In this document: positions 6,291 to 24,461 of the stretch, in pieces
Numbering within the stretch: position 1 is the first letter of the stretch
Layout of the letters: the number at the start of each line of letters is the position of its first letter
NCBI GenBank assembly: GCA_050011565.1
Contig: JBEKIW010000001.1
Span: 96,001-160,000 of the forward strand
DNA: 64,000 nt
Reading direction: 5' to 3'
From: Dehalococcoidia bacterium
GTDB taxonomy: Bacteria > Chloroflexota > Dehalococcoidia > GIF9 > UBA5629
The notes under the pieces: model-generated
The model's database searches: none
What the model was told of the DNA's origin: nothing
The model's input: the letters and a program-made list of their open reading frames with translations, nothing else
Made by a program: the position numbers and the translations under genes

Positions 6291-7385
6291 CTACTCGACG
6301 ATTTCCTGGTCGTCAATTTCAGATGTTTTAGCGGCTGGTAAGGTTTTGGCCAATTCTTCAATAAGCCGGCGCTGACCGGCGTCCATAGATTGTGGCGTTA
6401 CCACCCGGACCACCACCAACTGGTCTCCCTTACCCCGGCCATGAAGGTGCGGAACACCTTTGCCCTTGATACGGAACGTCTTTCCAGTCTGAGTGCCCGG
6501 CGGTATCTTCATTGTCACCTTGCCGTCAAGTGCCGGCACTTCTATGTTATCCCCCAGGGCAGCTTGAGCGAAATTGACAGGCAACTCATAGAAGACGTCA
6601 TAGTCTTTACGGACAAAGAATTTATGGGGCTTCACGGAGAAATTGACGTAGATATCGCCCGGAGAGCCGCCATATTTACCGGCGTCACCTTCATTACTAA
6701 GGCGCATCTGATAGTTTTCGTCTATTCCTGCTGGAACGGTTACCGTGAGCTTGCGTTTTACTCTTTCCTTGCCGCTGCCTTTGCACTGACGGCAAGGGTT
6801 GTTAATAAGCGTGCCTTCGCCTTTACAGTGCGGGCAAGTGGCAGCATGAACAAAACGCCCGAAAAGGCTTTGCTGAATTCGACGAACTTCGCCATTGCCG
6901 TTGCAGTTTGGACATTTTTGCGGATTTGTCCCGGGCTGGCTGCCGACACCGTGACATATAGAGCAGTTTTCGATTCGCCAGGTTTCTAATTCCTTGCTGG
7001 CACCGAATACGGCTTCTTCGAAAGAGAGAGTCAAATTAGCCCGCAGGTCGCCCCCTTTTTGAGGGGAACGGCGTTGGGCTCTGGTCGTAGTAGCGCCGAA
7101 GAAAGCGTCGAATATGTCACCCAAGCCGCCAAAACCAATATCCTCGAAACCGAACAAATCGGCGGTGGCTACGCTGCCGAAGCGGTCATAGGAGGCACGC
7201 TTTTCAGCATTGGAGAGGACTTCATAGGCCTCGTTTATCTCTTTGAATTTCTCTTCGGCATCCGGCTCGCGGTTGTGGTCGGGATGATATTTGAAGGCTA
7301 ACCTTCGGAAAGCCTTTTTGATTTCCCCATCACTGGCGTTTCTCGGAACTCCAAGTAGCTTATAATAATCTCGATTGTTGGCCAT
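6291..7385 (-). CDS. dnaJ: Chaperone DnaJ (class A)
   Basis: J domain with HPD, G/F region, four CxxCxGxG repeats, C-terminal domain. Confidence 0.95.
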
Positions 7386-9737: not shown

Positions 9738-10014
9738 GACCAAAACAAAATTACAGCCTGCCAAGTGGCAGATTACGGCAACGACTATTAAATGTGATTT
9801 GGTAGACGACTTCGTCACTATAATGGTGTACAAGGATTGGTCGACAAAATGTGTTTGGTACGGTCGTTATAAGCAGAAAGCCGTTGAGGACAAAAACTAT
9901 AAAGTCGATAGGAAAATAAGGCCCAAAGTAGATAAATGCCAGGGGCCTGAATGCTCCTATGTTACCAGTTATAGAGGTAAGCTGGTTAAGGAAGAATTTG
10001 GGGAGAAGAAGTAG
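9730..10014 (+). CDS. Small 4-Cys hypothetical protein
   Basis: Overlaps hspR stop and ends 5 nt before clp; Cys22, Cys41, Cys70, Cys75. Confidence 0.75.
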   Translation: MPRTKTKLQPAKWQITATTIKCDLVDDFVTIMVYKDWSTKCVWYGRYKQKAVEDKNYKVDRKIRPKVDKCQGPECSYVTSYRGKLVKEEFGEKK

Positions 10015-10019
10015 ATAAT

Positions 10020-12452
10020 ATGAAACCTGAAAGATTTACTGAACAGGCCAGGGAGGTACTGGCCGCTTCGCAGGGCATTGCCAGTCGTTATCACCATGTC
10101 CAGTGGGACGTGGAGCATATCTTACTGGCCTTGCTGGAGCAGAAGGATGGTTTGACCTCGCAGATATTGGATAAGCTGGGTGCCAATGTGGAGGCAATTA
10201 AGGCGCGAGTTGAAGATAGTCTGGCGCGTGCTCCCAAAGCGACGAATGAGTCGGCGCAAATTTATGTCACTCCCAGGATCGCCGGGCTTATGGATAGTGT
10301 GGCGCATGAGGCCGACCGGCTTAAGGATGATTTCATCAGCACCGAGCACCTGCTGATTGCTATTGCCGGGGACGACAGAGGGGAGTCAGCAGCAATTTTG
10401 AAAGAGTTCGGCATTGACCGCGAGAAAATTTACCGGGCGCTTCAAGATATTAGAGGTGGTCATCGTGTGGACAGTCCCACCGCTGAGAGCAAGTATCGCT
10501 CTCTGGAGAAGTATGGCCGTGACCTTACCGAGTTAGCCCGCCAGGGCAAGCTCGATCCGGTTATTGGTCGCGACGAGGAGATAAAGCGGGTAATGCAGAT
10601 ATTGACCCGGCGCACCAAGAATAACCCGGTTATTATCGGTGAGGCCGGCGTCGGTAAAACGGCCATTGCCGAAGGTTTAGCCCAGAAGATTGCCGTCGGT
10701 GACGTACCCGATTCCCTTAAAAATAAGAGGGTCATCGGTCTTGATATGGGAGCGCTGGTTGCCGGCAGTAAGTTCCGTGGGGAATTTGAGGAAAGGCTGA
10801 AGGCGGTTATGGATGAGGTCCGCCAGGCCAGCGGTGAGATTATCCTATTTATTGACGAGCTGCATACTGTAGTTGGTGCCGGAGCTGCCGAAGGGGCTAT
10901 CGATGCCAGCAACATGTTGAAGCCGGCTCTGGCTCGCGGCGAGCTCCAATGCGTCGGTGCCACTACACTCGACGAGTATCGACAGCATATCGAGAAGGAT
11001 AAGGCGCTGGAACGAAGGCTGCAGCCGCTGTTTATTAACGAACCCAGTGTCGAGGCGACGGTTGAAATGCTGCGCGGGCTGCGCCCCAGGTATGAAGCTC
11101 ATCATAAGATAAAGATTGATGATTCTGCACTGGTGGCTGCTGCCAAACTCAGCCAACGTTATATCTCGGACAGGTTTTTACCGGACAAGGCAATTGACCT
11201 TATCGATGAGGCAGCAAGCAAGCTGCGTATAGACATGGAAAGCAAGCCGCCGGATATCAAAGAGCTGGACACGAAGATAAAAAATCTGTTGGATGAGGAA
11301 GACTCAGCCTCTCAGAGAGGCGATTATCAAAAAGCAGCCGAGCTAAAGTCAGAAAGGATAAAGCTTGAGCTCGAGCGTGATGGGAAAGAGGCCGAGTGGC
11401 GAACGGAGAAAAAAATCGACAGCGTTGTTGATGAAGAGACTATAGCCGAGCTGGTTTCCAAGTGGACAGGTGTTCCCGTGTCCCGGATGCTGGAAGGTGA
11501 GGCTGAAAAGTTAATGCACATGGAAGATAGGCTGCATGACAGGATTGTGAATCAGGAAGCGGCAGTTTCAGTCATCTCTGAGGCTATACGGCGGGGGCGA
11601 GCCGGGCTTAAAGACCCTAAGAGGCCCATAGGCAGCTTAATGTTCCTGGGACCCACCGGTGTCGGCAAGACGGAACTGGCCAAGGCTCTGACCCAATTCC
11701 TTTTCGATGACGAAGATGCCATGATACGGATAGACATGTCAGAATTTATGGAGAAGCATACCGTATCGCGGCTAATAGGTGCACCGCCGGGATACGTGGG
11801 TTATGAGGAAGCAGGGCAACTGACTGAAGCCGTGCGGAGGCGCCCGTTTCGAGTGATTCTTTTTGATGAGGTTGAGAAGGCGCATCCTGACGTTCTTAAA
11901 ATTCTGCTGCAGATACTGGAGGATGGTAGGCTGACTGACGGCCATGGCAGAACGGTCGACTTTAAAAATACCGTGGTGATAATGACCAGCAATCTGGGCA
12001 CTGAGATGTTCAAGCGCCAGGCTATCGGCTTCTCTCGCCAGGAGGGAGATGAGCAGCAGAAGCTGAAAAGTGATATAGAAAAGGAGCTCAAGCAAGCCTT
12101 TCGGCCCGAGTTCTTGAACAGGATAGACGATACCATAATTTTCCAGCCGCTTACTGAAGAGCACCTGAAGAAGATTGTTGACTTATTAATCCTGGAGGTG
12201 CAGAAGCGGCTAGCTGATAGGAATATCAAACTTGACCTGGACGATGAAGCTAGAGCCTGGCTGTTAAAAGAGGGCTATGAGCCGGCGTACGGAGCGCGTC
12301 CGCTGCGTCGGGCAATCCAGCGCTATGTTGAGAACCCTCTATCGAGCAAAATACTACAGGGTGAAATAAAAGACGGAGAGACGGCGGTTGTTGGCGTCAG
12401 TGGTGATGTGTTAAGCTTTAGCACCAAGAAAAAGGTCAAGGCAGCTAAGTAG
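10020..12452 (+). CDS. Clp/Hsp100 ATPase, ClpC-like (short UVR-type middle domain, IGF loop)
   Basis: Clp-N repeats, Walker A motifs GEAGVGKT and GPTGVGKT, short coiled coil, AIGF motif. Confidence 0.9.
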
Positions 12453-13137: not shown

Positions 13138-13716
13138 GTGTTTATCTTCTTTTTCTGCATGGTCGGAATATCGGTGGGTGTAGTAGTCTGGCAATTAGTC
13201 GTCTGGTCCGGTGAGATTTCGCAAAAGAACAAGAGATATAAAGCTGCGGTTTCATGCTCCCGCAAACTTGGCAAGCCACTGCTGGTAGCCGGTGGGCCCT
13301 GGAGTAACACCGGAATCCGTCGATGGCTAAATATGCCGGCACACGGTGGTGGTGACGTTTGTCTCGACATAGCGCGCCGGGCATTCGAAGGACATCCTCG
13401 CGGGTTAATTGCCGATGTTACCCAGATTCCGTTCTTCGATAAGGCATTTGGGGCCGTTTTTGCCAGTCATTTGCTGGAACACCTGCCGTCGATTTCTTCT
13501 GCAAATAGAGCTCTGGATGAGCTTAATAGAGTGGCAGAGGCGGTGTTTCTCGTTTATCCTTCAAGGCAATCTGTAGGGGCATGGCTTCATAGCGGGCATC
13601 ACCTGTGGGTTTGGCAGAAGGGCAACACAATCTATATAAAGCAGAGGACCAATTCAAAGGGTGAGAAGAGCGCCAGGTATCTCATTGTTGATGCTTTCAG
13701 TGGAGTGCCTCATTGA
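13138..13716 (+). CDS. Membrane-anchored SAM-dependent methyltransferase-like protein
   Basis: N-terminal TM segment; ADVTQIPFFDKAFGAVFASHLLEHL resembles type-11 methyltransferase motifs; motif I is atypical. Confidence 0.6.
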   Translation: MFIFFFCMVGISVGVVVWQLVVWSGEISQKNKRYKAAVSCSRKLGKPLLVAGGPWSNTGIRRWLNMPAHGGGDVCLDIARRAFEGHPRGLIADVTQIPFFDKAFGAVFASHLLEHLPSISSANRALDELNRVAEAVFLVYPSRQSVGAWLHSGHHLWVWQKGNTIYIKQRTNSKGEKSARYLIVDAFSGVPH

Positions 13717-14537
13717 TTAAACTTCCCTTAAAGACTGGGAGTATCAATAGAGCACCGGACATTGCGGTTGCAGACATGAATTTACGGGAAGATGCCTATC
13801 GTCTGGCTCGGGAAATTATTAAGAGTGAGGAAGCGGCTGATAAGTTAGCCGGGCAAATTACAGATGTCTGTACTAGAGCCCAGGGCAAAGGCTTACTTAT
13901 TGTTCATAATCCTGGCGGTTGGGGGCATGCCCGCCTGGACCAATGCCTGGAGTGGGAAAGGGGGATAGTGGTCGGGGTAAAAGCCGCTGTACAAGAAATG
14001 GGACACAGTTTCTTTATGACCCAGTATTTCCGCAGTGGCGAGGGATGGCAGGAAGAGATGCGGGACTTGAAAGAACAGTTCCGCTTTTTTGAATCCAAGG
14101 CGAATATAATGGCAGCCTGGTTGCGATTCATCATTACACATGTCGATGGTATCAAGGTCATCTTAATAGGGGTAAGTCAGGGGGCGGCCTTCGGCAACTC
14201 GGTTCTGCAGCGACTGGGCGAGTATTACCCGGTATATAGCATTGAATTGGGCTTTCCTTTCCAGTATAAATCCCGGCGGGTAATTACCGAGAGGACATTA
14301 GCGATCGAGGGTAACGGGGTCAAGCCTGACGTGCTGGTACAAGGGAATATATGGGTTGGGGCTAGAATTCTTATGGCAGCTCCTTTCAAATGGATGTGGT
14401 ATCGTCTTAGAGGTAAAACGGTGGCGTTCGCACACTGTGTCACTGCCCCCGGTCACGAATACGATTGGAGCAATCCTGAGATTCAGCGGCGAATTCGGGA
14501 TTTACTCGAGGCTAATTTCGGCTCTAAAGATAGGTGA
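13713..14537 (+). CDS. Alpha/beta-hydrolase-like hypothetical protein
   Basis: Nucleophile elbow ILIGVSQGAA (GxSxG), NPGGWG oxyanion-like loop, late His (PGHEY). Confidence 0.55.
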   Translation: MIKLPLKTGSINRAPDIAVADMNLREDAYRLAREIIKSEEAADKLAGQITDVCTRAQGKGLLIVHNPGGWGHARLDQCLEWERGIVVGVKAAVQEMGHSFFMTQYFRSGEGWQEEMRDLKEQFRFFESKANIMAAWLRFIITHVDGIKVILIGVSQGAAFGNSVLQRLGEYYPVYSIELGFPFQYKSRRVITERTLAIEGNGVKPDVLVQGNIWVGARILMAAPFKWMWYRLRGKTVAFAHCVTAPGHEYDWSNPEIQRRIRDLLEANFGSKDR

Positions 14538-14568: not shown

Positions 14569-15153
14569 GTGACGATTTCAGAAAAGGCACGCTCAAGAAG
14601 ACGAGAATATATTATAGGCGGTCTGGCGTTAGCACTAACCGTTGCCCTTTGCGTTGCTGTCGTTTTATACTGGGATTATATCAGGCAGGCTGAACATTAT
14701 GGTTACCTTGGCGCTTTTGTTATCAGCGTTCTGGCCGGCGCTACGGTTTTAGTGCCCATACCCGGTATTTTAGTCGTCTTTACTTTAGGCAGCGTGTTAA
14801 ACCCGGCTCTGGTTGGGATAGTGTCTGGCCTGGGGGAAGCAGTCGGCAGCATTGGCATTTACATAAGCGGTTGGGGTGGGCAGAAAGCGGTACAAAACCT
14901 TAATCATAGATTCGTTAACAGGTTTGTCGACTGGATACGTCATCGAGGTGAGATTGCTGTCTTTTTAATGTCGGCTATACTCAATCCATTCTTTTATCCA
15001 TTTACAGCCATTGCCGGCATGTTGCGTTTTGGACTGGTAAAATTCTTCTTCTTGTGCTGGGGAGGCAAAACCATAAAAAATACGGCAATTGCCTATCTTG
15101 GTTATTTCGGGTTACGTAATATATTGCGCTGGGTAGGCGTGGCAGGAATCTAA
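14569..15153 (+). CDS. VTT/DedA family membrane protein
   Basis: GYLGAFVISVLAGATVLVPIPG...GLGEAVG...AVFLMSAILNPFFYP. Start moved to GTG 14569 to avoid overlap. Confidence 0.8.
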   Translation: MTISEKARSRRREYIIGGLALALTVALCVAVVLYWDYIRQAEHYGYLGAFVISVLAGATVLVPIPGILVVFTLGSVLNPALVGIVSGLGEAVGSIGIYISGWGGQKAVQNLNHRFVNRFVDWIRHRGEIAVFLMSAILNPFFYPFTAIAGMLRFGLVKFFFLCWGGKTIKNTAIAYLGYFGLRNILRWVGVAGI

Positions 15154-15160
15154 TTAATCT

Positions 15161-15502
15161 ATGCCTAGATCTAAATCTGGACCTAAACCAAAAGCTGAAC
15201 TTGAACTCAGGCCCAAGCCTAAGCTTAGCCGCAAGCGTAGACCAAAAACTGAGTTTGAACTCCTACCGAAGCCTAAGCTTAGCCGCAAGCGTAGACCCAA
15301 GCCGAGAAGCTGGCGGGTAGCGCTTCTCCTGTCTCTTTTCCTTGGGCCATTCGGGGCGGACCGTTTTTACATCGGAAGAACTCGCTCGGCGGTTCTTAAG
15401 CTCGTTACCTTAAGCTGCTTTGGTGTCTGGTGGCTGACTGACTTTGTACTTATCGCCGGTGATTGGCGGCGGGATGCCTGGGGCCGGCGGCTGAAGCATT
15501 AA
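15161..15502 (+). CDS. TM2-domain protein with a basic repeated N-terminus
   Basis: ALLLSLFLGPFGADRFYIG...KLVTL..FGVWWLTDFVLI is a TM2 signature. Confidence 0.85.
   Translation: MPRSKSGPKPKAELELRPKPKLSRKRRPKTEFELLPKPKLSRKRRPKPRSWRVALLLSLFLGPFGADRFYIGRTRSAVLKLVTLSCFGVWWLTDFVLIAGDWRRDAWGRRLKH
15188..15295 (+). repeat. 54-bp tandem duplication in the TM2 gene
   Basis: Units 15188-15241 and 15242-15295 encode PKAELELRPKPKLSRKRR and PKTEFELLPKPKLSRKRR. Confidence 0.9.
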
Positions 15503-15546
15503 CGCCGTTTGAGTTTCAGCGAGCTTTTTGCTAGACTTTTCGGCGT

Positions 15547-15622
15547 GGGGCTGTAGCTCAATCGGGAGAGCGTTTGACTGGCAGTCAAAAGGTAGTGGGT
15601 TCGAATCCCATCAGCTCCACCA
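15547..15622 (+). tRNA. tRNA-Ala (GGC)
   Basis: 76-nt cloverleaf GGGGCTG...CAGCTCC-A-CCA; anticodon arm TTTGA-CTGGCAG-TCAAA; T arm GGTTCGAATCC; G3:U70 pair. Confidence 0.97.
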
Positions 15623-16605
15623 ATAACCCTTCTGAAGCTAACATCAATTCAAATCACCTTTCGACTAGCCAAGATTCTTACACGCAATTAGATATCCCAT
15701 TACACCGTTTGATTGAAGGATTTCTGTTATCCTGTAAGGTAGAAAACAAATCTCCAGCAACTATATCCTTCTATAAAAATATCCTGGATAAGTTCCAATG
15801 GTTCTTAACCAAATTCGGGATTAATACTATCGACGCCACAACGATAAGAAGCTTTCTCGGATACCTTAAGGATACAGCCAGTAGATGGGATAGTAACAAC
15901 ACACGTGCAAATAGGCCGGTATCGCCAACAACGGTTAAGAGCTATTACATTGGTCTATCTGCATTATTTACCTGGGCTATGGAAGAAGAGTTGATACAGG
16001 TTAATCCGATGGCGAATGTAAAGAAACCTAAGCTACCTAATAAAATAGTTAAAGGTTTAGAATCTGAAATCATAATAACATTGCTAAACGCATTTAGTGG
16101 TCGAAGCTTTAATGATCTGCGTAATAAGGCTATGCTTTTAATGTTTCTGGATACTGGCTTAAGGTTATCTGAACTTGCAGGTCTGACTTTATCTGATATC
16201 AATATTGAGAAAGGCATCATCAAAATCATTGGTAAAGGCAATAAAGAAAGATACGCTAGAATAGGAGTCAAGACACAGAAAGCATTATGGAATTATTTAG
16301 CTCATAGACCAGTAGAAAAGGAGTATGTATGGTTGGGAAAAGGCTATTGTAAAATGACAGTAGATGGCATTGCTCTGGTTATTCGAAACTTGGGTAAGAG
16401 ATTAGGGATTAGATTATCACCGCATAGGTTGAGACATAGTTTTGCTATTAGCTTCTTAAGAAATGGAGCTAATCCATTCGAGTTACAGATAGCGTTAGGG
16501 CATACCACATTGGAAATGACCAGGAGATACACTCAAGCATTAGGATTTGACGATGTGTTTAAGAGACATGTGTTGGCTAGTCCGGTGGATAGATTGATGC
16601 ATTAG
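15574..16605 (+). CDS. Tyrosine recombinase/integrase (start uncertain; frame is open back into the tRNA)
   Basis: SAM-like N domain; catalytic R (DTGLRLSEL), K (GKGNK), HxxR (HRLRH), LGH and Y (TRRY) all intact; first ATG only at 15979. Confidence 0.93.
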   Translation: MTGSQKVVGSNPISSTNNPSEANINSNHLSTSQDSYTQLDIPLHRLIEGFLLSCKVENKSPATISFYKNILDKFQWFLTKFGINTIDATTIRSFLGYLKDTASRWDSNNTRANRPVSPTTVKSYYIGLSALFTWAMEEELIQVNPMANVKKPKLPNKIVKGLESEIIITLLNAFSGRSFNDLRNKAMLLMFLDTGLRLSELAGLTLSDINIEKGIIKIIGKGNKERYARIGVKTQKALWNYLAHRPVEKEYVWLGKGYCKMTVDGIALVIRNLGKRLGIRLSPHRLRHSFAISFLRNGANPFELQIALGHTTLEMTRRYTQALGFDDVFKRHVLASPVDRLMH

Positions 16606-16746
16606 GGTACGAGGCGGTGGAGAGTAATAGGAAGTGTGGGCTGGTGGATATACTAAAATGAATTTTGTTTAATGTCTAAAGATGGCTTTCGCTGGGGGAC
16701 CTTGAACCTCATATTAACAGACTATGCGGCAATCGATGCCCTGGAA

Positions 16747-16902
16747 TTAAGTTACCTCGCCTGAAAGTGCCCTGCGCAATGTCTTATTTCCACATTTTGG
16801 ACAAGGGGCTTCTTTCACTAGTTTCCCCTTAGGAACAGCAACTTTGCCTTTAAAATCACAGTTCCCGCAAACGACTGCTTCTTGATAAGTTTCATCGCTC
16901 AC
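16747..16902 (-). CDS. 51-aa zinc-ribbon microprotein
   Basis: Own translation MSDETYQEAVVCGNCDFKGKVAVPKGKLVKEAPCPKCGNKTLRRALSGEVT; CxxC...CPxCG; SD AAGGAG upstream of GTG; absent from the ORF track. Confidence 0.75.
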   Translation of the reverse strand: MSDETYQEAVVCGNCDFKGKVAVPKGKLVKEAPCPKCGNKTLRRALSGEVT

Positions 16903-17099
16903 TTCTCTATCTCCTTGCCTTGGTCATAAATATTATATCATACTGATAATATCATTCCAGTGTCGATCGCTTTGTTAGCCCGAATGTATTACTCTAGATG
17001 AGTGCCAATTCAAAACCCAGATTTTTACCACCCGTATTGCACAATAGAAACGTTCTAGATCTTCATGACTTCTTGGCTATCCCCAGGCCTCCGATTCAG

Positions 17100-17570
17100 C
17101 TATCTATTATTTGAGGTTCCCTTAAGGAATTTTCTGAATATGATGAAGGGACTTGCGAAAACAATAGTGTATATAATCGCTGGAATCCACCAATATCCAT
17201 TAGCTGCAAAACAACTTAAGATTATTCCTGTAATAAATAGCAAAAGTCCGACTATAAAAACTATACAGGCAATGATTTTATTGCCTTCTTCAAACCACAA
17301 GAAACCTTCGAATATAAAAATAAGTGAAAAACTTGATATTTGTAATGCTGGCGTCTGTTTAATTTCTGATTTCGTGGCAAGGAATATCAAAGCAACCGCA
17401 ATAATAATGGTTCCATACATTAGAACAACTCTACTAAACAGTCTTCTCGTATTCCACCATTTGCGGGATTGGAATAAAAAAATAATACCAATACCTATTA
17501 TGGGTAGTTTAGGAGCAATAAGTGTTAGCCCGTTTATAAATAGTGTTAGCCCGTTTATCAACTCTGCCAT
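17100..17570 (-). CDS. Multi-TM hypothetical membrane protein
   Basis: Highly hydrophobic; SD GAGGT upstream; 21-bp tandem duplication (INGLTL twice) near the N-terminus. Confidence 0.65.
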   Translation of the reverse strand: MAELINGLTLFINGLTLIAPKLPIIGIGIIFLFQSRKWWNTRRLFSRVVLMYGTIIIAVALIFLATKSEIKQTPALQISSFSLIFIFEGFLWFEEGNKIIACIVFIVGLLLFITGIILSCFAANGYWWIPAIIYTIVFASPFIIFRKFLKGTSNNR

Positions 17571-17702
17571 TTCTGTTACCTCTATATTTGAGGCTATCCC
17601 AAATTGTTAAGTATGTCCCGTTTATTTCATTTTGAATGTATTTGTCTATAGTTAACCTTGGTTAAGTAATTACATATATATAGTTCAGGTCAGGATGACC
17701 AG

Positions 17703-17816
17703 CGATTACTTGGACATACAACATTGGAAATGACTAGGAGATATACACAAGCATTAGGTTTTGATGACGTGTTTAAGAGGCATGTGGTAGCGAGTCCCGT
17801 GGATAGGTTGTTGTAG
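17703..17816 (+). pseudogene. Integrase 3'-tail remnant 1
   Basis: RLLGHTTLEMTRRYTQALGFDDVFKRHVVASPVDRLL*, near-identical to the C-terminus of the 15574 integrase. Confidence 0.9.
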
Positions 17817-17840
17817 GACTGGTTTTCGGGGGCAGGTCAC

Positions 17841-17936
17841 CTACTTCTTGTCTCCTTTGCTCTTCCCCTTTTGCGCGTCGGCATACTTATTTTTATGCTC
17901 GTTCTTGGGATGCTTTTTCTTATTACGCTTACTCAT
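17841..17936 (-). CDS. 31-aa Lys-rich microprotein
   Basis: MSKRNKKKHPKNEHKNKYADAQKGKSKGDKK*, SD GAGGAG upstream. Confidence 0.55.
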   Translation of the reverse strand: MSKRNKKKHPKNEHKNKYADAQKGKSKGDKK

Positions 17937-17993
17937 CGTCTTACTCCTCTATCCAGAAAAATACGATAGGTCACTCATTCCGTCATTTATTAT

Positions 17994-18416
17994 ATCACTA
18001 TGGCTGATATTGACATTAAAAGAGGAATCATTAAGACAGTAGGTAAAGGCAATAAAGAAAGATACGCTAGAATAGGCGTAAAGACACAGAAAGCCTTATG
18101 GAATTATCTAGCACATAGACCAGTAGAAAAGGAGTATGTATGGTTGGGAAAAGGCTATGGTAAAATGACCAAGGATGGCATAGCTCTAATGGTACGGAAT
18201 CTCGGTAAGAGATTGGGTATGAAGTTATCACCACACAAATTGAGACATAGCTTTGCTATTAGCTTCTTAAGAAACGGAGCTAATCCGTTTGAGTTACAGA
18301 TAGCATTAGGGCATACTACACTGGAAATGACCAGGAGATATACTCAGGCATTAGGGTTTGATGATGTGTTTAAAAGACATATAATAGCATCACCGGTGGA
18401 TAGACTGGTTAAATAG
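17994..18416 (+). pseudogene. Integrase C-terminal half, remnant 2
   Basis: Near-identical to the second half of the 15574 integrase; lacks the N domain and first catalytic Arg. Confidence 0.9.
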
Positions 18417-18420
18417 CTTT

Positions 18421-18455
18421 GATAGTCCCTAGTGTAGAATGCTCTAGGGACTATC
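18421..18455. terminator. 12-bp stem-loop between convergent genes
   Basis: GATAGTCCCTAG-11 nt-CTAGGGACTATC. Confidence 0.6.
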
Positions 18456-18533
18456 GACTCACACATTTGTTTTTAGGCTACAGATTAAGTTAAAACGTGT
18501 GGTTAAAAAAGCCTTAAGTTGAAATTCTTGTTG

Positions 18534-18719
18534 TTAGACGGTCTTATCTTCAATTGCGGCTGAAGGTGCATCCTTCTTGACGGATTCTATCCCGTTTTTT
18601 GCATTCTCCTTGGTCGTGTATCCTTCACCCGAATTCGCAATCATTTGTCCATTGGATGCAATTAGTCTCCATCGAATTTCACCTTTTTTGTCTTTGAACA
18701 ATTCAAATTTCGCTGTCAT
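18534..18719 (-). CDS. YegP/DUF1508 (UPF0339) family protein
   Basis: KFELFKDKKGEIRWRLIASNGQMIANSGEGYTTKENAKNGIESVK; SD AGGAGG. Confidence 0.9.
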   Translation of the reverse strand: MTAKFELFKDKKGEIRWRLIASNGQMIANSGEGYTTKENAKNGIESVKKDAPSAAIEDKTV

Positions 18720-18851
18720 GACATTTACCTCCTATCTTTATTATTAAAGAGATACTAGCAGAGTCAGGTAGTGGGTCAATTTGAATCTGAAAAATTCTAA
18801 CTCAAATTGTGCGATGCTACACTGGCTCAATAAAGTAACTTCAAAGTGCCT

Positions 18852-18980
18852 TTATGAAATCAGTTGCGATAAAATCCAGAACGCTAATCCTAGGGCTATT
18901 AGGTTTACCTTATTCCAAATGTTAATAGTTGCTATGATGAAACAGACTAGCCCAAGTATCAGTAGGATTGTTGTTATCAT
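18852..18980 (-). CDS. 42-aa two-helix membrane microprotein
   Basis: MITTILLILGLVCFIIATINIWNKVNLIALGLAFWILSQLIS*, SD AAGGAG; absent from the ORF track. Confidence 0.65.
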   Translation of the reverse strand: MITTILLILGLVCFIIATINIWNKVNLIALGLAFWILSQLIS

Positions 18981-19422
18981 AATTTCTCCTTTTTCTGCGA
19001 TTCAATGTCAAGACTCTTCCTTAACCCACGGGTCTTCAACTATTAAGTGAATACTAGCAGAGTGAACATGTAGAAGTAATATAATCGAGGCACGATATGT
19101 TAAATAGTTATGATATTTATAGCGTCATCGGCGGATTGATTGATGAAATGACAGGACGGAGGTAATTCCAATGGGCCTATTTGTGCACCAAATGCAAGAA
19201 TCTTGGTGTTAGGATACTGGTACGCTCAAATGGATGAGAAGGGAAAAGTGTTGTTTAATACACCTTATAATAAAGGGGTAATAGCGTTACGATGGAAAGG
19301 GTATAACTAGCGGTGGCAGGAATTGGAACATCTCAGCCAGTGGGGAGATATCATAAATTGAATACACCGCTGACATACCTGCTATAATGCTAATTTAAGC
19401 GAATTTAATACGGAGGTCAGAC

Positions 19423-19524
19423 ATGGGAAGCAAAGGAAGAAAGAACGAGAAAAAGCCTAAGAAGCAAGTAAAAGCGAAGTCAGCAGCGAAGACACCGGAT
19501 AAGACAGAACGAAAGAAGAGATAA
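19423..19524 (+). CDS. 33-aa Lys/Arg-rich microprotein
   Basis: MGSKGRKNEKKPKKQVKAKSAAKTPDKTERKKR*, SD GGAGGT, extended -10 TGcTATAAT at 19380-19388. Confidence 0.6.
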   Translation: MGSKGRKNEKKPKKQVKAKSAAKTPDKTERKKR

Positions 19525-19553
19525 TAGTCCCGCTAGAAGGCAGGATTAGCGAT

Positions 19554-19769
19554 ATCGGCGATATAGAGCGTGTAAACATCAAACCAGGCTTGCGGGTTTC
19601 AATCGTAATAAAGGCAGATCAACGATCCGGAAAACTAACCGAAGGGATAGTCAAAGATATTTTGACACGCTCTCCGGTTCATCCGCATGGCATCAAGGTT
19701 CGCTTAGAAAACGGTCAAGTTGGGCGAGTCAAAGAGATAAAAGCTAAAGGTCTTTCTCCGCCGAGCTAG
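19554..19769 (+). CDS. YwbE (DUF2196) family protein with a non-canonical or mutated start (ATC)
   Basis: ERVNIKPGLRVSIVIKADQRSGKLTEGIVKDILTRSPVHPHGIKVRLENGQVGRVKEI; no ATG, GTG or TTG in frame near the N-terminus. Confidence 0.75.
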   Translation: MGDIERVNIKPGLRVSIVIKADQRSGKLTEGIVKDILTRSPVHPHGIKVRLENGQVGRVKEIKAKGLSPPS

Positions 19770-19813
19770 CTATGTGACGTGTCCATAATAAGTGTACCAT
19801 TTTTCGTTGGCCC

Positions 19814-20077
19814 TCACCCCAAAAATTGAACACCACCATTCATTATTGACCTGAGTTTACCTTCTCTTGTAAGCCTCTTAATTCTATGCTCCATTTTAGA
19901 GGCGAGCGATTTATCTTCATAATCCCACTTCCTGAGTAATTTAACAGGTCTTCTTCCTCTGGTATACTTAGAACCAATCCCTAAATTGTGCTCTCTTATG
20001 CGCTTAACAATATTATTGCTGATACCTGTATAAAGAGTTCCGTCACTGCACTCGACTATATAAACGTACCAGGCCAT
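19814..20077 (-). CDS. GIY-YIG nuclease family protein (UPF0213/YazA type)
   Basis: WYVYIVECSDGTLYTGIS...RIREHNLGIGSKYTRGRRPVKL. Confidence 0.9.
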   Translation of the reverse strand: MAWYVYIVECSDGTLYTGISNNIVKRIREHNLGIGSKYTRGRRPVKLLRKWDYEDKSLASKMEHRIKRLTREGKLRSIMNGGVQFLG

Positions 20078-20132
20078 TCTATTTTCCTTCAGCAGCTCTT
20101 ACCTGTAATTATAACGCCTTCAGGTTGTGGCC

Positions 20133-20182
20133 GTGGCTAGTCCGGTGGATAGGTTGATACGTTAGACTATGATGCGGTGGAG
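20133..20182 (+). pseudogene. Integrase 3'-tail remnant 3 plus downstream flank
   Basis: gtggctagtccggtggataggttgatacgttag (VASPVDRLIR*) then ..gcggtggag, matching 16574-16622. Confidence 0.75.
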
Positions 20183-20319
20183 GCACATAAGAGATTTAGT
20201 CCGGTGGCTGGGTTGAGGTAACAGCGGGATGGAGTAGGTTAAACATACCTATTGACTTTTTATAATCAGGCTAGTAAAATGCTGAACGTAAAAAACTAAT
20301 AATTAAGAGGAGGTTATTT

Positions 20320-20685
20320 ATGGTCAAAACTTGGGGATGGATCAGTTTCATACTATTTTGCCTTGGCGTCATACTAGCTGTTGTCGGAGGTTTAGTATTT
20401 CCAGAGAGCATAGTCATTGCATTAATACTTGTCATTTTCGGCCTTATAATCGGTATTATACATGTCAGTATTGACAAAGAAGGAAAAGGACTGGTTATTC
20501 TGCTCCTGGCCACGATAGCAATATTGGCAATGACGGCTGCCTTTTCTCCGGTTACATTTTTGGGCTTCGGTAAAATGGCGGCCAGCATATTAGTAAATTT
20601 TGCCGCGTTAATGGCACCTGTGGCCCTCGTCGCTGCAATAAAGGCGCTGCTGCAACTATTCCTCGGACCACAAGTTAAAATCTAG
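20320..20685 (+). CDS. 4-TM hypothetical membrane protein
   Basis: SD GAGGAGG; four hydrophobic segments. Confidence 0.75.
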   Translation: MVKTWGWISFILFCLGVILAVVGGLVFPESIVIALILVIFGLIIGIIHVSIDKEGKGLVILLLATIAILAMTAAFSPVTFLGFGKMAASILVNFAALMAPVALVAAIKALLQLFLGPQVKI

Positions 20686-20832
20686 CTAGTCTTAAATCAA
20701 CAAGACTAGATTGTCATTCATCTGAGACAGGTCGCTTTTACTTAAGTGTGAAAGATGGCCTGTCTCATTATTATTGACCACGTACGCGAGGTTTTCAAAT
20801 AAGCGAGAACAGGCAGGTGTTGTATTTAGACT

Positions 20833-20883
20833 GTTTGATTAGGAGTCAAAAGGTAGTGGGTTCGAATACCATCAGCTCCACCA
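20833..20883 (+). repeat. Degenerate att copy (tRNA-Ala 3' half)
   Basis: gtttgattaggagtcaaaaggtagtgggttcgaataccatcagctccacca compared with tRNA 15572-15622. Confidence 0.9.
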
Positions 20884-21029
20884 GACAATCCTATGAAGTT
20901 ATTCCAAATTTAGATATCTTTCCATACTACCGAATTCCTACCCATATCGCGTCACTAGTTTGTATTATAATATTATATACGTTATATACGCCGCTTATTA
21001 TGGTTGGTATGAAATGTTGAGGACACGCT

Positions 21030-22274
21030 GTGCCTAAGATTCCTGACCTGGTCAATGGTTTCAAGATGCTGAAGGAGGTGGACCTGAATACGGTCCGCGC
21101 GCAGGCTGAAATACCCCTGCATGTCATGGTTATCGGAGAGGCCGGGACAGGTAAGACTGCGCTGGTCGAACAGTTACTTGTCGGGCCAAGGTCGGAAGGG
21201 CCTCCGGATTTGGTCTCCATTACCATGTATCGGCCAGACCTGAATCTGCAAATTCCGGATAATACGCTGGTATTGCTGCTTCTGGATGTTAGGAAGACCG
21301 ACCTTCAAAACGAGCGGGCAATCTTTGACAGGCTCATTGGCAGGAAGATAGCGACGGTCGTCTGCTACAACAAATCATATCTGGCCCGCGAAGAAAACCT
21401 TACGCTGAACAGATCAATCTGGACTGGTGCCGAGACGGCTGTTATTACCGCCACCGACCGCGATACGCTGATGCGCGAGCTTGTACCTGCCATCTTACGC
21501 GTGTGCAAAGGCCGTGAGACCCGGTTAGCCCGTCACCTGCCGATGTTACGTGCGCCGGTCGCGCAAAAGCTGATTGACGACACCTGCTTTATCAATGCTA
21601 CCTATAGCCTGAGCACCGGCCTGGCGGAGATAGTGCCTATACTGGACCTGCCGCTGAATTTAGCAGATATCGTTATATTGACTAAAAACCAGGCTTTGAT
21701 GGCGTACACCATTACGCTGGCCATGGGAATGCAGGCCGAATGGCGCGATACCATGCCCAAATTAGCGGCTGTGGTTGGATCAGCCTTTCTCTGGCGGCAA
21801 CTAGCCCGTTATCTGGCCGGCCTCATACCAGTCATCGGCATCGTGCCAAAGGTAGTGATCGCCTACTCGGGAACCTACGTGATTGGCGAAGCTGTTTACC
21901 AGTGGTGCGCCAACGGCGAGAAGCTCAATCCGGAGGAATTAAAAGTTCTCTATGCTGAGGCCTTGAAGCGTGGCAGTGAGGTTGCCAGGGTGCTGATCGC
22001 GAAAAGGGGTGCAGCTCAGTACCAGGCGGCCGACAAATTCAAGGAGATAGCACAGCTCATCTCTAAGAGAAGCACCACTACTCAGGAGCAGGCCTCCAGC
22101 AGGTTTCAGGCGGTTATGTCCTTCATTGCCCGAAAAAGCCAGGATACACGTGAGCAAATTTTTTCTATTGCTGATAAAGTGTTCCAACCGGGGACTGCCT
22201 GCTTGGCTTGCGGCAAGAAGTCGCCCAAAGGTGCGGGCTTCTGCGCTTTCTGCGGCAAACCCCTGAATTCCTGA
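21030..22274 (+). CDS. P-loop (GTPase-like) + DUF697/YcjF-like + C-terminal zinc-ribbon protein
   Basis: GEAGTGKT, degenerate NK(SY), hydrophobic DUF697-like block, CLACG...CAFCG. Confidence 0.65.
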   Translation: MPKIPDLVNGFKMLKEVDLNTVRAQAEIPLHVMVIGEAGTGKTALVEQLLVGPRSEGPPDLVSITMYRPDLNLQIPDNTLVLLLLDVRKTDLQNERAIFDRLIGRKIATVVCYNKSYLAREENLTLNRSIWTGAETAVITATDRDTLMRELVPAILRVCKGRETRLARHLPMLRAPVAQKLIDDTCFINATYSLSTGLAEIVPILDLPLNLADIVILTKNQALMAYTITLAMGMQAEWRDTMPKLAAVVGSAFLWRQLARYLAGLIPVIGIVPKVVIAYSGTYVIGEAVYQWCANGEKLNPEELKVLYAEALKRGSEVARVLIAKRGAAQYQAADKFKEIAQLISKRSTTTQEQASSRFQAVMSFIARKSQDTREQIFSIADKVFQPGTACLACGKKSPKGAGFCAFCGKPLNS

Positions 22275-22347
22275 CGGGCGTCAGCATCAGTTGGCACAAA
22301 CCGGATTACATATGGAGAAAAGTATGACAAAAATGGTTTTGATCGAA

Positions 22348-22393
22348 ACTGGCAGTCAAAAGGTAGGGGGTTCGAATCCCATCAGCTCCACCA
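22348..22393 (+). repeat. Distal att copy (tRNA-Ala 3' half)
   Basis: 46-bp match to 15577-15622 with one mismatch. Confidence 0.93.
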
Positions 22394-22452
22394 AAGCGTG
22401 CCGCGTCTGTTGCCTTTGACACACCCATGATTGAACAGAATTATCTGTATTA

Positions 22453-23487
22453 CTATTTCGTCATATTATCAATAATAGCCCTGCCGGCGTACTTGCCTTC
22501 GTCCAACTCCTCGAGTACCTGGCTGATTTCCGATAAGCTGGCAACTCTACCTACGTGAGTTTTTACTTTACCATCTGCGGCCAATTGAATTAATTCCCTC
22601 ATTTCTTCTACTGTACCCACTGCCGACGACATTATAAGAGGGTCTCTGCCTAATAGTTCCAACGGCATTATCGATATTGGCCCTTCGCTCACGGGAGGCA
22701 TTCCCACTCCGACAAATACTCCTCCGCGCCTCATTAATTTTAATCCGAGTTCAAAGCCAGCTATCTTTGGTGAAAATGCGATGCTGGCGTACACGCCGCC
22801 GAACTTCTCCTTGACGAATTTTTCGGCTTCGCTTATATCCACGGCGTAGTCGGCACCCAGGCTCTTCACGAATTCTATTTTGTCCTGCCCTACATCGACT
22901 CCGACGACTTTATACCCGAATGCCTTGGCTGTCTGTACTGCGTAGTGCCCGAGCCCACCCGCCGCACCGATAATAGCTACCGGCTTACCCGGTAAAACGC
23001 CGAATTTGATTAGTTTTTTGACGGCGCTGTAGGCTGTTAAGCCGCCGCATGCCAGCGGGACTTCTCTGTCGCTTACTTCCTCAGGTAGTTTTACCAATGA
23101 TTTTACCCAAACTGAAATGTACTCAGCATAGGCGCCGATAATGCCCTTAGTCTGTTTGCATAGCCTGGGCCTGCCACTGAGGCAATATTCACAAGCACCA
23201 CACCAGTATCCTCCTCCTGAGCCACCGAGACCCAATATAACCCTATCGCCTTTCTGTATGAATTTCTCTGCTCCTGTACCTAACTCCTCGACTATCCCTA
23301 TGCCTTCATGACCCATCGGCATCGGAATTGGTGGGAGAAACCCGGGCCAATCCCCTTTAACCAAATGTACATCCGAGTGGCAAACGCCTGCGGTGGTAAT
23401 CTTGACCAGGGCTTCTTCGTGCCCGGGGGTGGGTTTAGGTATATCTTTAATAACTAATTTACCGTCGGCTAGGAAAACTGCGCGCAT
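22453..23487 (-). CDS. Zinc-dependent alcohol dehydrogenase
   Basis: GVCHSD, GHEG, CGACEYC...C, GAAGGLG; start at MRAVFL with SD GGAGG. Confidence 0.92.
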   Translation of the reverse strand: MRAVFLADGKLVIKDIPKPTPGHEEALVKITTAGVCHSDVHLVKGDWPGFLPPIPMPMGHEGIGIVEELGTGAEKFIQKGDRVILGLGGSGGGYWCGACEYCLSGRPRLCKQTKGIIGAYAEYISVWVKSLVKLPEEVSDREVPLACGGLTAYSAVKKLIKFGVLPGKPVAIIGAAGGLGHYAVQTAKAFGYKVVGVDVGQDKIEFVKSLGADYAVDISEAEKFVKEKFGGVYASIAFSPKIAGFELGLKLMRRGGVFVGVGMPPVSEGPISIMPLELLGRDPLIMSSAVGTVEEMRELIQLAADGKVKTHVGRVASLSEISQVLEELDEGKYAGRAIIDNMTK

Positions 23488-23707
23488 ATTTGTCTGCCTC
23501 CAACACACTATTCAATAACGGAATTATACCATTGGCTCAGGTACAGATGTCTGCCATTTTCTGTAGCCAATTGTACTCCTTGGTCAGGAGGTGTCAAACA
23601 AGGGGCAGAGGTTAAAGCAGCGCCAGACTGACGATTGTTCAGGTAATACGATTGCTCTATAATTGAGCTGCGTCAGTAATCTTAAATGAATGGAAGAGGA
23701 GTAAGCA

Positions 23708-24391
23708 ATGGCTTCTGTGAAAGACGTATTGGACAAACTCCAGAGCAAAGCCAGGCCAGACCAGTTGGCAGGAATGGCTAAATTCGGGATAGCAATTGAA
23801 GGAAGATTAGGGGTATCGGTTCCTGATATGAGGAAACTGGCGAAGGAGATAGGGAAAGACCACAAGCTGGCGTTAGAGTTGTGGAAGACGGGGATAGCTG
23901 AGGCCAGGATGGTGGCGGCGATGGTTGATGACCCGGATAAGCTAACTGAAGAGCAGATGGAGGACTGGGTGAAGGACTTCAACTCCTGGGATGTCTGCGA
24001 CCAGGTGTGCATGAATCTTTTCGAAGAGAACAGATTAGCCTGGAAGAAAATTATCGATTGGTCTGTGCGGAAAGAAGAGTTCGTCAAGAGGACTGCCTTT
24101 TCGCTAATAGCCTGTCTGGCGTGGCATGACAAGAAGGCGAACGATGAGAAATTTATCGAATTGCTACCGGTAATAATACGAGGAGCCACGGACGAGCGTA
24201 ACTTCGTCAAGAAAGCAGTCAACTGGGCTCTTAGAAACATAGGTAAAAGGAATCTCAACTTGAACCAAGCTGTAATAGATGCTGCAAAGGAAATCCAGCG
24301 ACTCGATTCGAAGGCTGCTCGCTGGGTTGCCTCCGATACTCTCCGGGAACTACAGAGTGAAGCTGTCCAGGCCAAGCTCAGAAAAGGTTGA
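23708..24391 (+). CDS. DNA alkylation repair protein (AlkD-like HEAT repeat)
   Basis: FNSWDVCDQVC, DERNFVKKAVNWALRNIGKR. Confidence 0.88.
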   Translation: MASVKDVLDKLQSKARPDQLAGMAKFGIAIEGRLGVSVPDMRKLAKEIGKDHKLALELWKTGIAEARMVAAMVDDPDKLTEEQMEDWVKDFNSWDVCDQVCMNLFEENRLAWKKIIDWSVRKEEFVKRTAFSLIACLAWHDKKANDEKFIELLPVIIRGATDERNFVKKAVNWALRNIGKRNLNLNQAVIDAAKEIQRLDSKAARWVASDTLRELQSEAVQAKLRKG

Positions 24392-24461
24392 GGTCGTAGC
24401 CTTGACTGAGAGGCGGCTGCGTGCTAACTTTCGTAAGCATTCACACTAAGGAGGAAAACAG

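Follow-up and report, generated by a model that had tools for sequence, protein, structure and literature searches.

A probable composite island of small integrase-bearing elements and integrase remnants at a tRNA-Ala(GGC) gene in a Dehalococcoidia bacterium

We analyzed a 64-kb stretch of DNA from a Dehalococcoidia bacterium (the window; G000:C1:96001-160000, from a genome of 2.0 Mb in 8 contigs), in which an intact tyrosine integrase gene, fragments of related integrase genes, and a series of small cargo genes follow a tRNA-Ala(GGC) gene (Table 1). This is the sole tRNA gene that ARAGORN finds in the window, and self-comparison of positions 15000-23000 by BLASTN recovered its 3' half in three copies (15572-15622, 20833-20883, and 22348-22394), spaced by 5261 nt and then by 1510 nt. 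The att repeats begin at the anticodon stem and related sites lose homology within a 17-nt core, which places the probable crossover region in the anticodon arm; across the 64 kb, the only plus-strand occurrences of the right half of this core motif are the three att copies. As in islands that target tRNA genes, a tyrosine recombinase gene adjoins the tRNA (Pfam Phage_integrase, PF00589, 1.3e-31), direct repeats of the tRNA 3' part lie distal to it (92% and 98% identity), and content that varies among relatives (G005, G012, G019, G024, and G004 differ) is combined with a deviant G+C content, which is 37-42% in 16000-21000 and 54% in 21000-22000 against about 50% in the flanks. A half-site search identified ACCGTTTGAT, at the end of the leader between tRNA and integrase, as a copy of the core's left half-site. 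At the integrase start (15704-15713) it matches that half-site at 9 of 11 nt, and it is found again, sometimes with a substitution, in the aligned leaders that retain the integrase start. This copy could reflect coding constraint or a putative integrase binding site at the enzyme's own start codon. Behind att2, positions 20884 to about 20945 match the conserved leader of 13 related loci, best the G187/L045 type. The first-pass annotation, made from the letters alone, had read a decayed integrase 5' end here; an integrase-proximal remnant is indeed present, but since it lies upstream of the equivalent of the likely start (TTG 15709), it is a remnant of the leader (P' arm) rather than demonstrated coding sequence.

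The integrase frame is open from 15574, inside the tRNA gene. Besides the Phage_integrase domain, the product has SAM-like N-domains, and its translation shows the motifs LRLSE, GKGNKER, HRLRHS, GH, and RRY. The best NCBIfam models are XerA, XerD, and XerC (150-171 bits, all under cut-off), and no arm-binding domain was found in Pfam and NCBIfam searches. The integron-integrase model of NCBIfam scores 54.2 bits against a cut-off of 265. With an Xer-like enzyme, this score, and cargo open reading frames (ORFs) on both strands, the earlier description of the locus as integron-like holds as an analogy only. We rejected a phage or satellite origin because viral_contigs yielded no relative of the integrase, and because PADLOC found nothing in the cargo beyond one weak P-loop match. 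About 95 nt past the integrase stop, including the three GGTGGA boxes, are common to nine sequences, and GGTGGA boxes also occur at 20139-20215; these boxes may be protein-binding sites. A conserved RNA structure at the tail and downstream was discarded as an explanation, since RNAalifold predicted 0 pairs on the nine tail and downstream sequences; Rfam at E<=1 over 15000-23000 returned tRNA-like matches and three weak, chance-level hits only. Suppressed synonymous change at the integrase 3' end was likewise discarded, as the sliding fraction of synonymous differences (0.35-0.59, and 0.45 at codons 271-290) has no clear dip. The codon for Phe280 is TTT in 31 of 31 sequences, which are related, and nothing is drawn from this.

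Table 1. Features of the tRNA-Ala(GGC) locus, in window coordinates (aa, amino acids; nt, nucleotides)
Feature	Position	Strand	Details
tRNA-Ala(GGC)	15547-15622	+	Integration target, attL side; ARAGORN; Rfam tRNA 69.5 bits
Core site, probable crossover region	15573-15589	+	Anticodon arm TTTGAC-TGGCAGT... (stem, 7-nt loop, stem)
Leader, tRNA end to integrase start	15623-15708	+	Conserved in 13 related loci; ends in ACCGTTTGAT
Xer-like tyrosine integrase, intact	15709-16605	+	298 aa from TTG 15709 (likely start)
Three GGTGGA boxes	16579-16655	+	About 27-29 nt apart; first in last integrase codons, two past stop
Zinc-ribbon protein, 51 aa	16747-16902	-	Pfam Zn_ribbon_8, 8e-4, under cut-off
156-aa ORF with hydrophobic stretches	17100-17570	-	No Pfam/NCBIfam match
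Integrase tail 2	17703-17816	+	Last ~37 codons, another allele; 17712-17813 85.3% to 16498-16599; dN/dS 0.01
Integrase C-terminal half	17994-18416	+	Residues 159-297, third allele; Pfam 8e-21; dN/dS 0.10
DUF1508 / HVO_2922-family protein, 61 aa	18534-18719	-	Pfam 4e-22; NCBIfam 91 bits, cut-off 90
Sub-unit of ~300 nt	18742-19063		42-aa ORF 18852-18980 (minus); repeat family D10
DUF2196 / YwbE-family protein, 59 aa	19590-19769	+	Pfam 3e-27; NCBIfam 95 bits
Stand-alone GIY-YIG domain protein, 87 aa	19814-20077	-	Pfam 5e-17; 79% match beside tail in G005
Integrase tail 4 and GGTGGA-box stretch	20134-20215	+	Last 10 codons + stop; left end of TM121 cassette
121-aa ORF with hydrophobic stretches	20320-20685	+	No Pfam/NCBIfam match
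att2, tRNA 3'-half copy	20833-20883	+	92.2% to 15572-15622; core 20834-20850; Rfam tRNA 26 bits
Leader (P' arm) remnant, fifth element	20884-20945	+	Compared with 13 leaders
414-aa P-loop protein, C-terminal CxxC pairs	21030-22274	+	Pfam AAA_16 3e-6, under cut-off
att3, distal tRNA 3'-half copy	22348-22394	+	97.9% to 15577-15623; core's left stem gone

The 3' end of the integrase gene had been reported to occur four times in one orientation, and self-BLASTN recovered all four occurrences. The C-terminal half, which is without the region of the first catalytic Arg, matches the intact gene at 84.4% over 404 nt (18004-18407 vs 16193-16596) and tail 2 at 81.1% (17712-17806 vs 18309-18403), and the short tail 4 matches the intact gene at 85.7% (20134-20182 vs 16574-16622). 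This last tail had been described as ten codons with a flank to 20182; it is real, but the similarity extends to about 20215, through the non-coding GGTGGA stretch. Registers were taken from BLAST, because MAFFT placed the shortest of the four copies wrongly. No other tail copies were found in the 2.0-Mb genome. Of 138 codons compared between the full gene and the C-terminal half, 34 differ synonymously and 17 non-synonymously. The ratio of non-synonymous to synonymous rates (dN/dS, NG86) is 0.10 for this pair (dS 0.81), 0.01 for the full gene and tail 2, and 0.04 for the half and tail 2, with dS ranging from 0.8 to 1.7 among the three pairs. Since dN/dS of 0.01-0.10 is far below 1 at such dS values, the copies diverged as working genes and represent separate alleles, not a recent duplication, which bears out the earlier proposal of related but independent integrase lineages.

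Together, these observations make it likely that 15623-22394 is a composite genomic island at tRNA-Ala(GGC), produced by serial integration and deletion of one family of small elements. The element would consist of an Xer-like tyrosine integrase with one to three small genes, or of an integrase-less derivative. Recombination by the integrase most likely takes place at the anticodon arm (5-bp stem, 7-nt loop, 5-bp stem), and with a crossover at this position each event would leave a copy of the tRNA 3' half. Later deletions would take internal att sites and the 5' parts of older integrase genes, and would leave behind the cargo together with one short 3' stub per old integrase. None of the window's three tails has a core; only three cores survive (tRNA, att2, and att3), so the inner units (tails 2-4) would be fixed in place. 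Two blocks may still be movable by the intact integrase, namely 15623-20883 (5.26 kb) and 20884-22393 (1.5 kb).

Several relatives share this pair of tRNA and integrase: the integrase follows tRNA-Ala in G024 (87% amino acid identity), G005 (86%), G017 (76%), and G019 (72%, with one stop), and the copy in G012 is broken. A match to the integrase family at E<=1e-30 occurs in 18 of 41 genomes, G000 included, and a 95-nt tail probe matched 22 of the 202 genomes of the order (with at most four matches scored per genome). Extra tails at E<=1e-3 number three in G005, eight in G019, and two in G012. Such arrays are thus present in independent assemblies, with shared tails and with differing array content and order, as the first-pass annotation had anticipated. 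Deletion can be followed within one unit. The tail of the half copy and the DUF1508 gene (window 18246-19039) are 96% identical to G012 13387-14179, and the G012 counterpart of the window's C-terminal half (G012 13165-13547) retains 19 nt of att and integrase nt 1-92 and 813-974, whereas the window retains integrase nt 571-983. Because G012 and the window keep different parts of the integrase, two different deletions affected one ancestral gene, and integrase remnants arise by independent deletions. Further internal deletions beside the tRNA are seen in G187, G074, G004, and L047. In three genomes (L044 and L049, both ~9900-10000, and L052, ~10000-10085), the exact deletion junction of the integrase is occupied by a G-rich hairpin repeat (..GGAGAGGGGGCWGGGGG..GAGGTCA..), which resembles a small element of the miniature inverted-repeat transposable element (MITE) or repetitive extragenic palindromic (REP) type.

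Relatives also show reassortment at the cores. Many TWTGAYT-NNNN-AATCAAA sites, in one orientation, occur in the arrays of G012, G004 (locus L044), and G005 and in the metagenome contig L061. The arms flanking the 17-nt cores assort independently: left arms of 0.80-0.98 identity go with right arms of 0.20-0.46, and the converse is found too, with many site pairs whose right arms agree at 0.77-1.00 and whose left arms are unrelated. Specifically, the window's att2 and G012:21079 share the left arm (0.98) and not the right (0.20), with the break inside the core loop, and the same is seen for G012:6433 and G012:20351 (0.87 and 0.40) and for G012:22005 and L061:1142 (0.98 and 0.37). This is the pattern that reciprocal recombination at the anticodon-arm core would give.

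To describe the remnants across the lineage, we used the 298-aa integrase as a TBLASTN query against 21 sequences (6 assembled arrays and 15 loci) and a further 4 loci, 2 of which are duplicates. Besides six full genes, we found 30 fragments that reach the C-terminus (E<=1e-3, at least 68% identity), and about 12 shorter tails were detected by BLASTN or motif only. The commonest tail start is directly after the catalytic Tyr, and the left ends spread across about 140 nt. Stops or frameshifts occur in 3 of the 30. Many of the tails are related by descent, several of them as judged from shared flanks, so the 30 tails do not equal 30 independent events. Six fragments fall short of the C-terminus (G012 1-157, L042 1-117, L045 63-121, L055 1-68, L047 1-36, and G187 63-95), and a seventh is cut by a contig end. 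The 5' remnants follow a full tRNA in some cases and only its last 6-19 nt in others.

Several observations weigh against the composite-island reading or parts of it. Simple random deletion does not predict the tail lengths, as 29 of the 30 fragments begin no earlier than residue 227 of 298, and 21 of the 30 no earlier than residue 260, although the C-terminus, as the best-conserved part of the protein, is also the easiest to detect when short. The first-pass annotation had placed the newest unit next to the tRNA. Identity to G012 is 90.5-91% in the left flank, 93% in the integrase 5' part, 90.6% in the zinc-ribbon unit, 96% in the C-terminal half with DUF1508, and 99% in the fourth unit; identity to G004 is 85.6-89% in the flank, 97.6% in the zinc-ribbon unit, and 98.7% in the fourth unit. 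By this gradient the tRNA-proximal unit is no younger than the distal ones, which contradicts a simple arrangement in which age increases away from the tRNA; evidently, inner cores can take up new material, or single units can be exchanged. Within the genus, gene order to the right of att3 is not conserved, so att3 is the only marker of the island's outer boundary. The ADH gene and its neighbour (22395-24400) sit at separate loci in genus relatives; no att or tRNA fragment lies beside the relatives' ADH gene, and no empty site is therefore definable from the right flank. Moreover, the four sequencing runs examined contain neither an empty site nor an unambiguous circular junction. Joints from 15572 to 22361/22367 were considered as empty-site joints and rejected, because they carry other anticodon arms and thus represent other tRNA-Ala genes. 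Overall, the separate lineages, variable arrays, and deletions support serial accretion, but the newest-at-tRNA order is not supported, nor is the assumption that each unit was once integrase plus cargo, since the fourth unit is an integrase-less cassette with its own core site in two relatives.

Within the composite-island reading, the short tails call for an explanation of their own. We give a somewhat less than even chance to the idea that they are a by-product: arrays that keep att sites would lose DNA by excision, long integrase repeats would collapse by homologous recombination, and streamlining would trim junk to intergenic length. Because cargo signals begin just past the integrase stop, the last junk to remain would be the integrase 3' end. 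The variable left ends of the tails are in line with this, as are the small gaps between upstream gene and tail in the window (132, 57, and 56 nt). Likewise, further trimming is seen in one junction family, in which the G005 tails at 6678 and 9176 share about 60 nt of upstream flank with L051 but the start of the tail is shifted to a later position. The existence of 5' remnants, rarer than C-terminal ones (6 vs 30), and a contig from two other samples that joins integrase nt ~103 to a tail at about residue 277 fit as well. However, repeated trimming should take time, yet frame damage affects just three of the 30 tails, and trimming leaves unexplained why one conserved arm of core, linker, and tail precedes different cargos.

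This arm is the basis of a more tentative alternative, which extends the composite-island reading and does not exclude it. Here, single genes between anticodon-arm-like cores would be moved in trans by the Xer-like integrase, in the manner of dif modules or integron cassettes, and the tail (the AGTCCGGTGGATAG anchor and the GGTGGA boxes) would persist because it serves as a functional arm or anchor. G004 (L044), G012, and L061 contain units of 0.57-1.34 kb that lie between core-like sites, all oriented the same way. Five distinct cassettes with differing cargos (L061:269, L061:1142, L061:2483 (= G005:12953), G012:20351 (= L044:15930), and L044:14227) start with the same arm, which consists of the core, a 16-nt linker (NGGTYARATTRMAGYY), and AGTCCGGTGGATAG with the rest of the last ~10 integrase codons. 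The conserved right arm precedes at least five cargos, at right-arm identities of 0.77-0.91 where left arms are unrelated. The mini-tails of these arms match different integrase alleles together with the downstream cargo: window 16576-17040, which spans the intact integrase end and the zinc-ribbon gene, has a 97.6% identical counterpart in L044:14257-14721, and the end of the G005 integrase matches window 20133-20195 at 92% identity. The window's fourth unit (20136-20838) corresponds to the G012:20351 cassette (99.0% to G012, 98.7% to L044). The similarity begins exactly between GC and TAGTCCGG, and in the window the GIY-YIG spacer replaces core and linker. These junctions, in which one arm is joined at the tail edge to the ends of differing integrase alleles plus cargo, fit recombination in or at the tail without proving it, and the breakpoints at the tail edge are compatible with the earlier suggestion that retained tails act as homology anchors. 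Cassettes are 97-99% identical where backbones are 85-91%, and the core-to-anchor distance of 33 nt equals the spacing of TTTGA (16546) and anchor (16579) inside the integrase gene.

Against this stand several points, beginning with that equal spacing, which may be chance. The window's three tails are without a core, the eight tails of G019 have no cores within one mismatch, and the ~140-nt spread of left ends does not correspond to one site. There is no conserved RNA fold, and family searches reveal no arm-binding domain of the integrase. In G004, at 90% completeness, the window integrase as query gives no match at E<=1e-30. A metagenome scan for the exact conserved-arm pattern found it in a single contig, too few for a wide count of cargos. 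Site-bounded modules with reassorted arms are seen in relatives; in the window, only the unit 20884-22393 and the right end of 20134-20883 are of this kind. We also considered that the tails arise through integrase recombination between the core and a TTTGA-N7-TTTAA pseudo-core; the linker is not integrase-like and most tail flanks have no P-arm, so this is not supported as a general route. It is possible, though less likely than not, that the lineage has a cassette system of its own, with 0.5-1.3-kb single-gene cassettes, anticodon-arm mimics, a trans-acting Xer-like integrase, and the last ~10 codons with three GGTGGA boxes co-opted as right arm or anchor. Such co-option would explain the well-preserved integrase tails that litter the arrays. 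As a separate observation, a gene for a 57-aa HTH_17 protein (L044 13921-14094, minus strand), whose fold family includes many excisionases, immediately precedes the first core-bounded cassette in the G004 array.

Sequencing runs bear on whether the arrangement is real. Contigs of run X1, which is not independent because it is possibly the source sample, tile 15400-22600 with 0 differences, and nothing obvious points to a misassembly. Their only breaks, at 16260-16318 and 18071-18129, lie within the repeat shared by the intact gene and the C-terminal half. Single contigs span 16318-18071 and 19638-22377, and thereby the junctions of tails 2 and 4 and of att2, and depth is 38-53 in the island against 39-41 in the flanks. 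That the repeats reflect a recent internal duplication, or assembly collapse or a chimera of strain variants, is very improbable: short-read contigs break in the shared repeat, as any repeat would cause, but the synonymous divergence of the copies, the difference-free contigs across three junctions at even depth, and the similar arrays in independent assemblies all speak against it. Least credible of all is that the tails are kept as translated small C-terminal integrase peptides that modulate recombination; their amino acid sequence is very well kept and tail 2 has a 30-codon ORF from TTG, but we rejected this because an in-frame stop lies within 30 nt upstream in 22 of 34 tails and neither a start codon nor a Shine-Dalgarno sequence recurs consistently. 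In runs X3, X4, and X6, from other studies, portions of the region are present at 90-99% likeness and are joined differently: tail to tail (16581 to 18393, and 18392 to 20142), the first ~100 nt of the integrase onto a tail (15725 to 17755), and, in X4, 22393 to 15652, in which att3 is followed by an integrase leader and which could be a circle or a different tandem order. These joints show that other arrangements exist in other populations.

Among the cargo, the 414-aa P-loop gene occupies the 1.5-kb, 54% G+C unit between att2 and att3 and was found in none of the 40 relatives searched. The ~300-nt sub-unit at 18742-19063, with 23-nt direct repeats (TATTAA..ATACTAGCAGAGT) on either side, contains a hydrophobic 42-aa ORF. 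It is missing from contigs of runs X4 and X6, where 18742 continues directly into 19043; it thus varies by presence or absence and has a boundary type of its own. At 19165-19310, a conserved element of about 110 nt (..CCTATTTGTGCACCAAATGCAAGAAT..) adjoins integrase tails in G012, L044, L046, L051, L055, and G019; in the window it reads as a small gene divided between two frames (ATG 19172, TTG 19203) that is possibly frameshifted. Just upstream of the tRNA, a TM2-domain gene contains two 54-nt tandem copies (15184-15291, 85% alike) that encode a K/R/P-rich repeat. In G005, tRNA-Ala(TGC) lies ~860 nt upstream of tRNA-Ala(GGC) (L028 3352-3425 and 4287-4362), whereas the window locus has the GGC gene only.

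The main inference of the first-pass annotation describes a known process, because serial integration with remnants has been described at tRNA genes elsewhere. In Dehalococcoides, tRNA-Ala is a recombination site that starts a high-plasticity region, in which tRNA 3' fragments are repeated and a recombinase homolog is truncated (McMurdie et al. 2009, PMC2764846). According to the available portions of that paper, the D. mccartyi high-plasticity region 1 islands are alike in class, in their tRNA-Ala target, and in poor synteny beyond the tRNA; they are large, with rdhA and phage-type genes and one truncated recombinase, whereas the units here measure 0.5-2 kb, carry tiny genes without a known function, and form arrays of 3' stubs. 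In Prochlorococcus, tycheposons integrate proximally at tRNA genes, degenerate elements, fragmented integrases, and partial tRNAs pile up, and streamlined genomes keep useful cargo (Hackl et al., 10.1101/2020.12.28.424599). As far as the available text of that preprint goes, tRNA integration with tandem and degenerate copies is found here as well, in a different phylum and with a different integrase family, and the 3'-stub bias and core-bounded single-gene cassettes seen here do not appear in that account. The helicase and primase domains of the tycheposon integration-replication module are not among the window's cargo in Pfam and NCBIfam searches. Our literature search on degenerate integrase fragments at tRNA islands and on Dehalococcoides tRNA-Ala integrases returned no title or abstract on tail arrays.

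Islands at the small RNA gene ssrA of Dehalococcoides reportedly lie in tandem, each ending in a direct repeat of the ssrA 3' end. These islands are integrated at the 3' end of the gene (McMurdie et al. 2011, PMC3146451) and, in the available parts of the description, differ from the island here in their tmRNA target, larger size, and conserved integration modules. Acinetobacter plasmids carry dif modules, small accessory modules between short Xer-type sites that are shuffled among replicons (PMC6449649, PMC13141974) by use of host XerCD (PMC12907356), according to the portions of these papers available. The arm reshuffling seen here looks alike, but the sites here are direct repeats, chromosomal mimics of a tRNA anticodon arm, and the Xer-like enzyme is element-encoded. 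On plasmids, dif-module sites alternate in orientation. Integrons have a tyrosine recombinase gene by the primary site and then a stack of small cassettes, a layout similar to the one described here, and the integrase-free arrays of G004 recall clusters of attC sites lacking integron integrases (CALINs). However, the integrase here is not of the IntI type but scores best with XerA, XerD, and XerC, and the cassettes are not co-oriented with an attC each: genes lie on both strands with their own signals, there are no attC hairpins, and the cassette sites of relatives are 17-nt anticodon-arm mimics, unlike integron attC.

Overall, our findings describe a known process in unusually small pieces, in which the dominance of short, well-preserved integrase 3' stubs among the remnants and a possible role of the core-linker-tail arm as a working site are worth following across the lineage rather than in the window alone. 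Dehalococcoidia genomes are small and streamlined, and to our knowledge little is known of gene exchange in this class outside the dehalogenase islands of Dehalococcoides. The locus and its relatives document tRNA gene accretion in units of a single small gene, and since units are 97-99% identical where genomes differ by 9-15% elsewhere, this exchange is recent and fine-grained. Should the tails and the anticodon-arm mimics turn out to be functional, they would constitute a third architecture of cassette capture beside integrons and dif modules, one built on a tRNA gene; otherwise, the locus would still be a clear worked example of the published serial-integration model.

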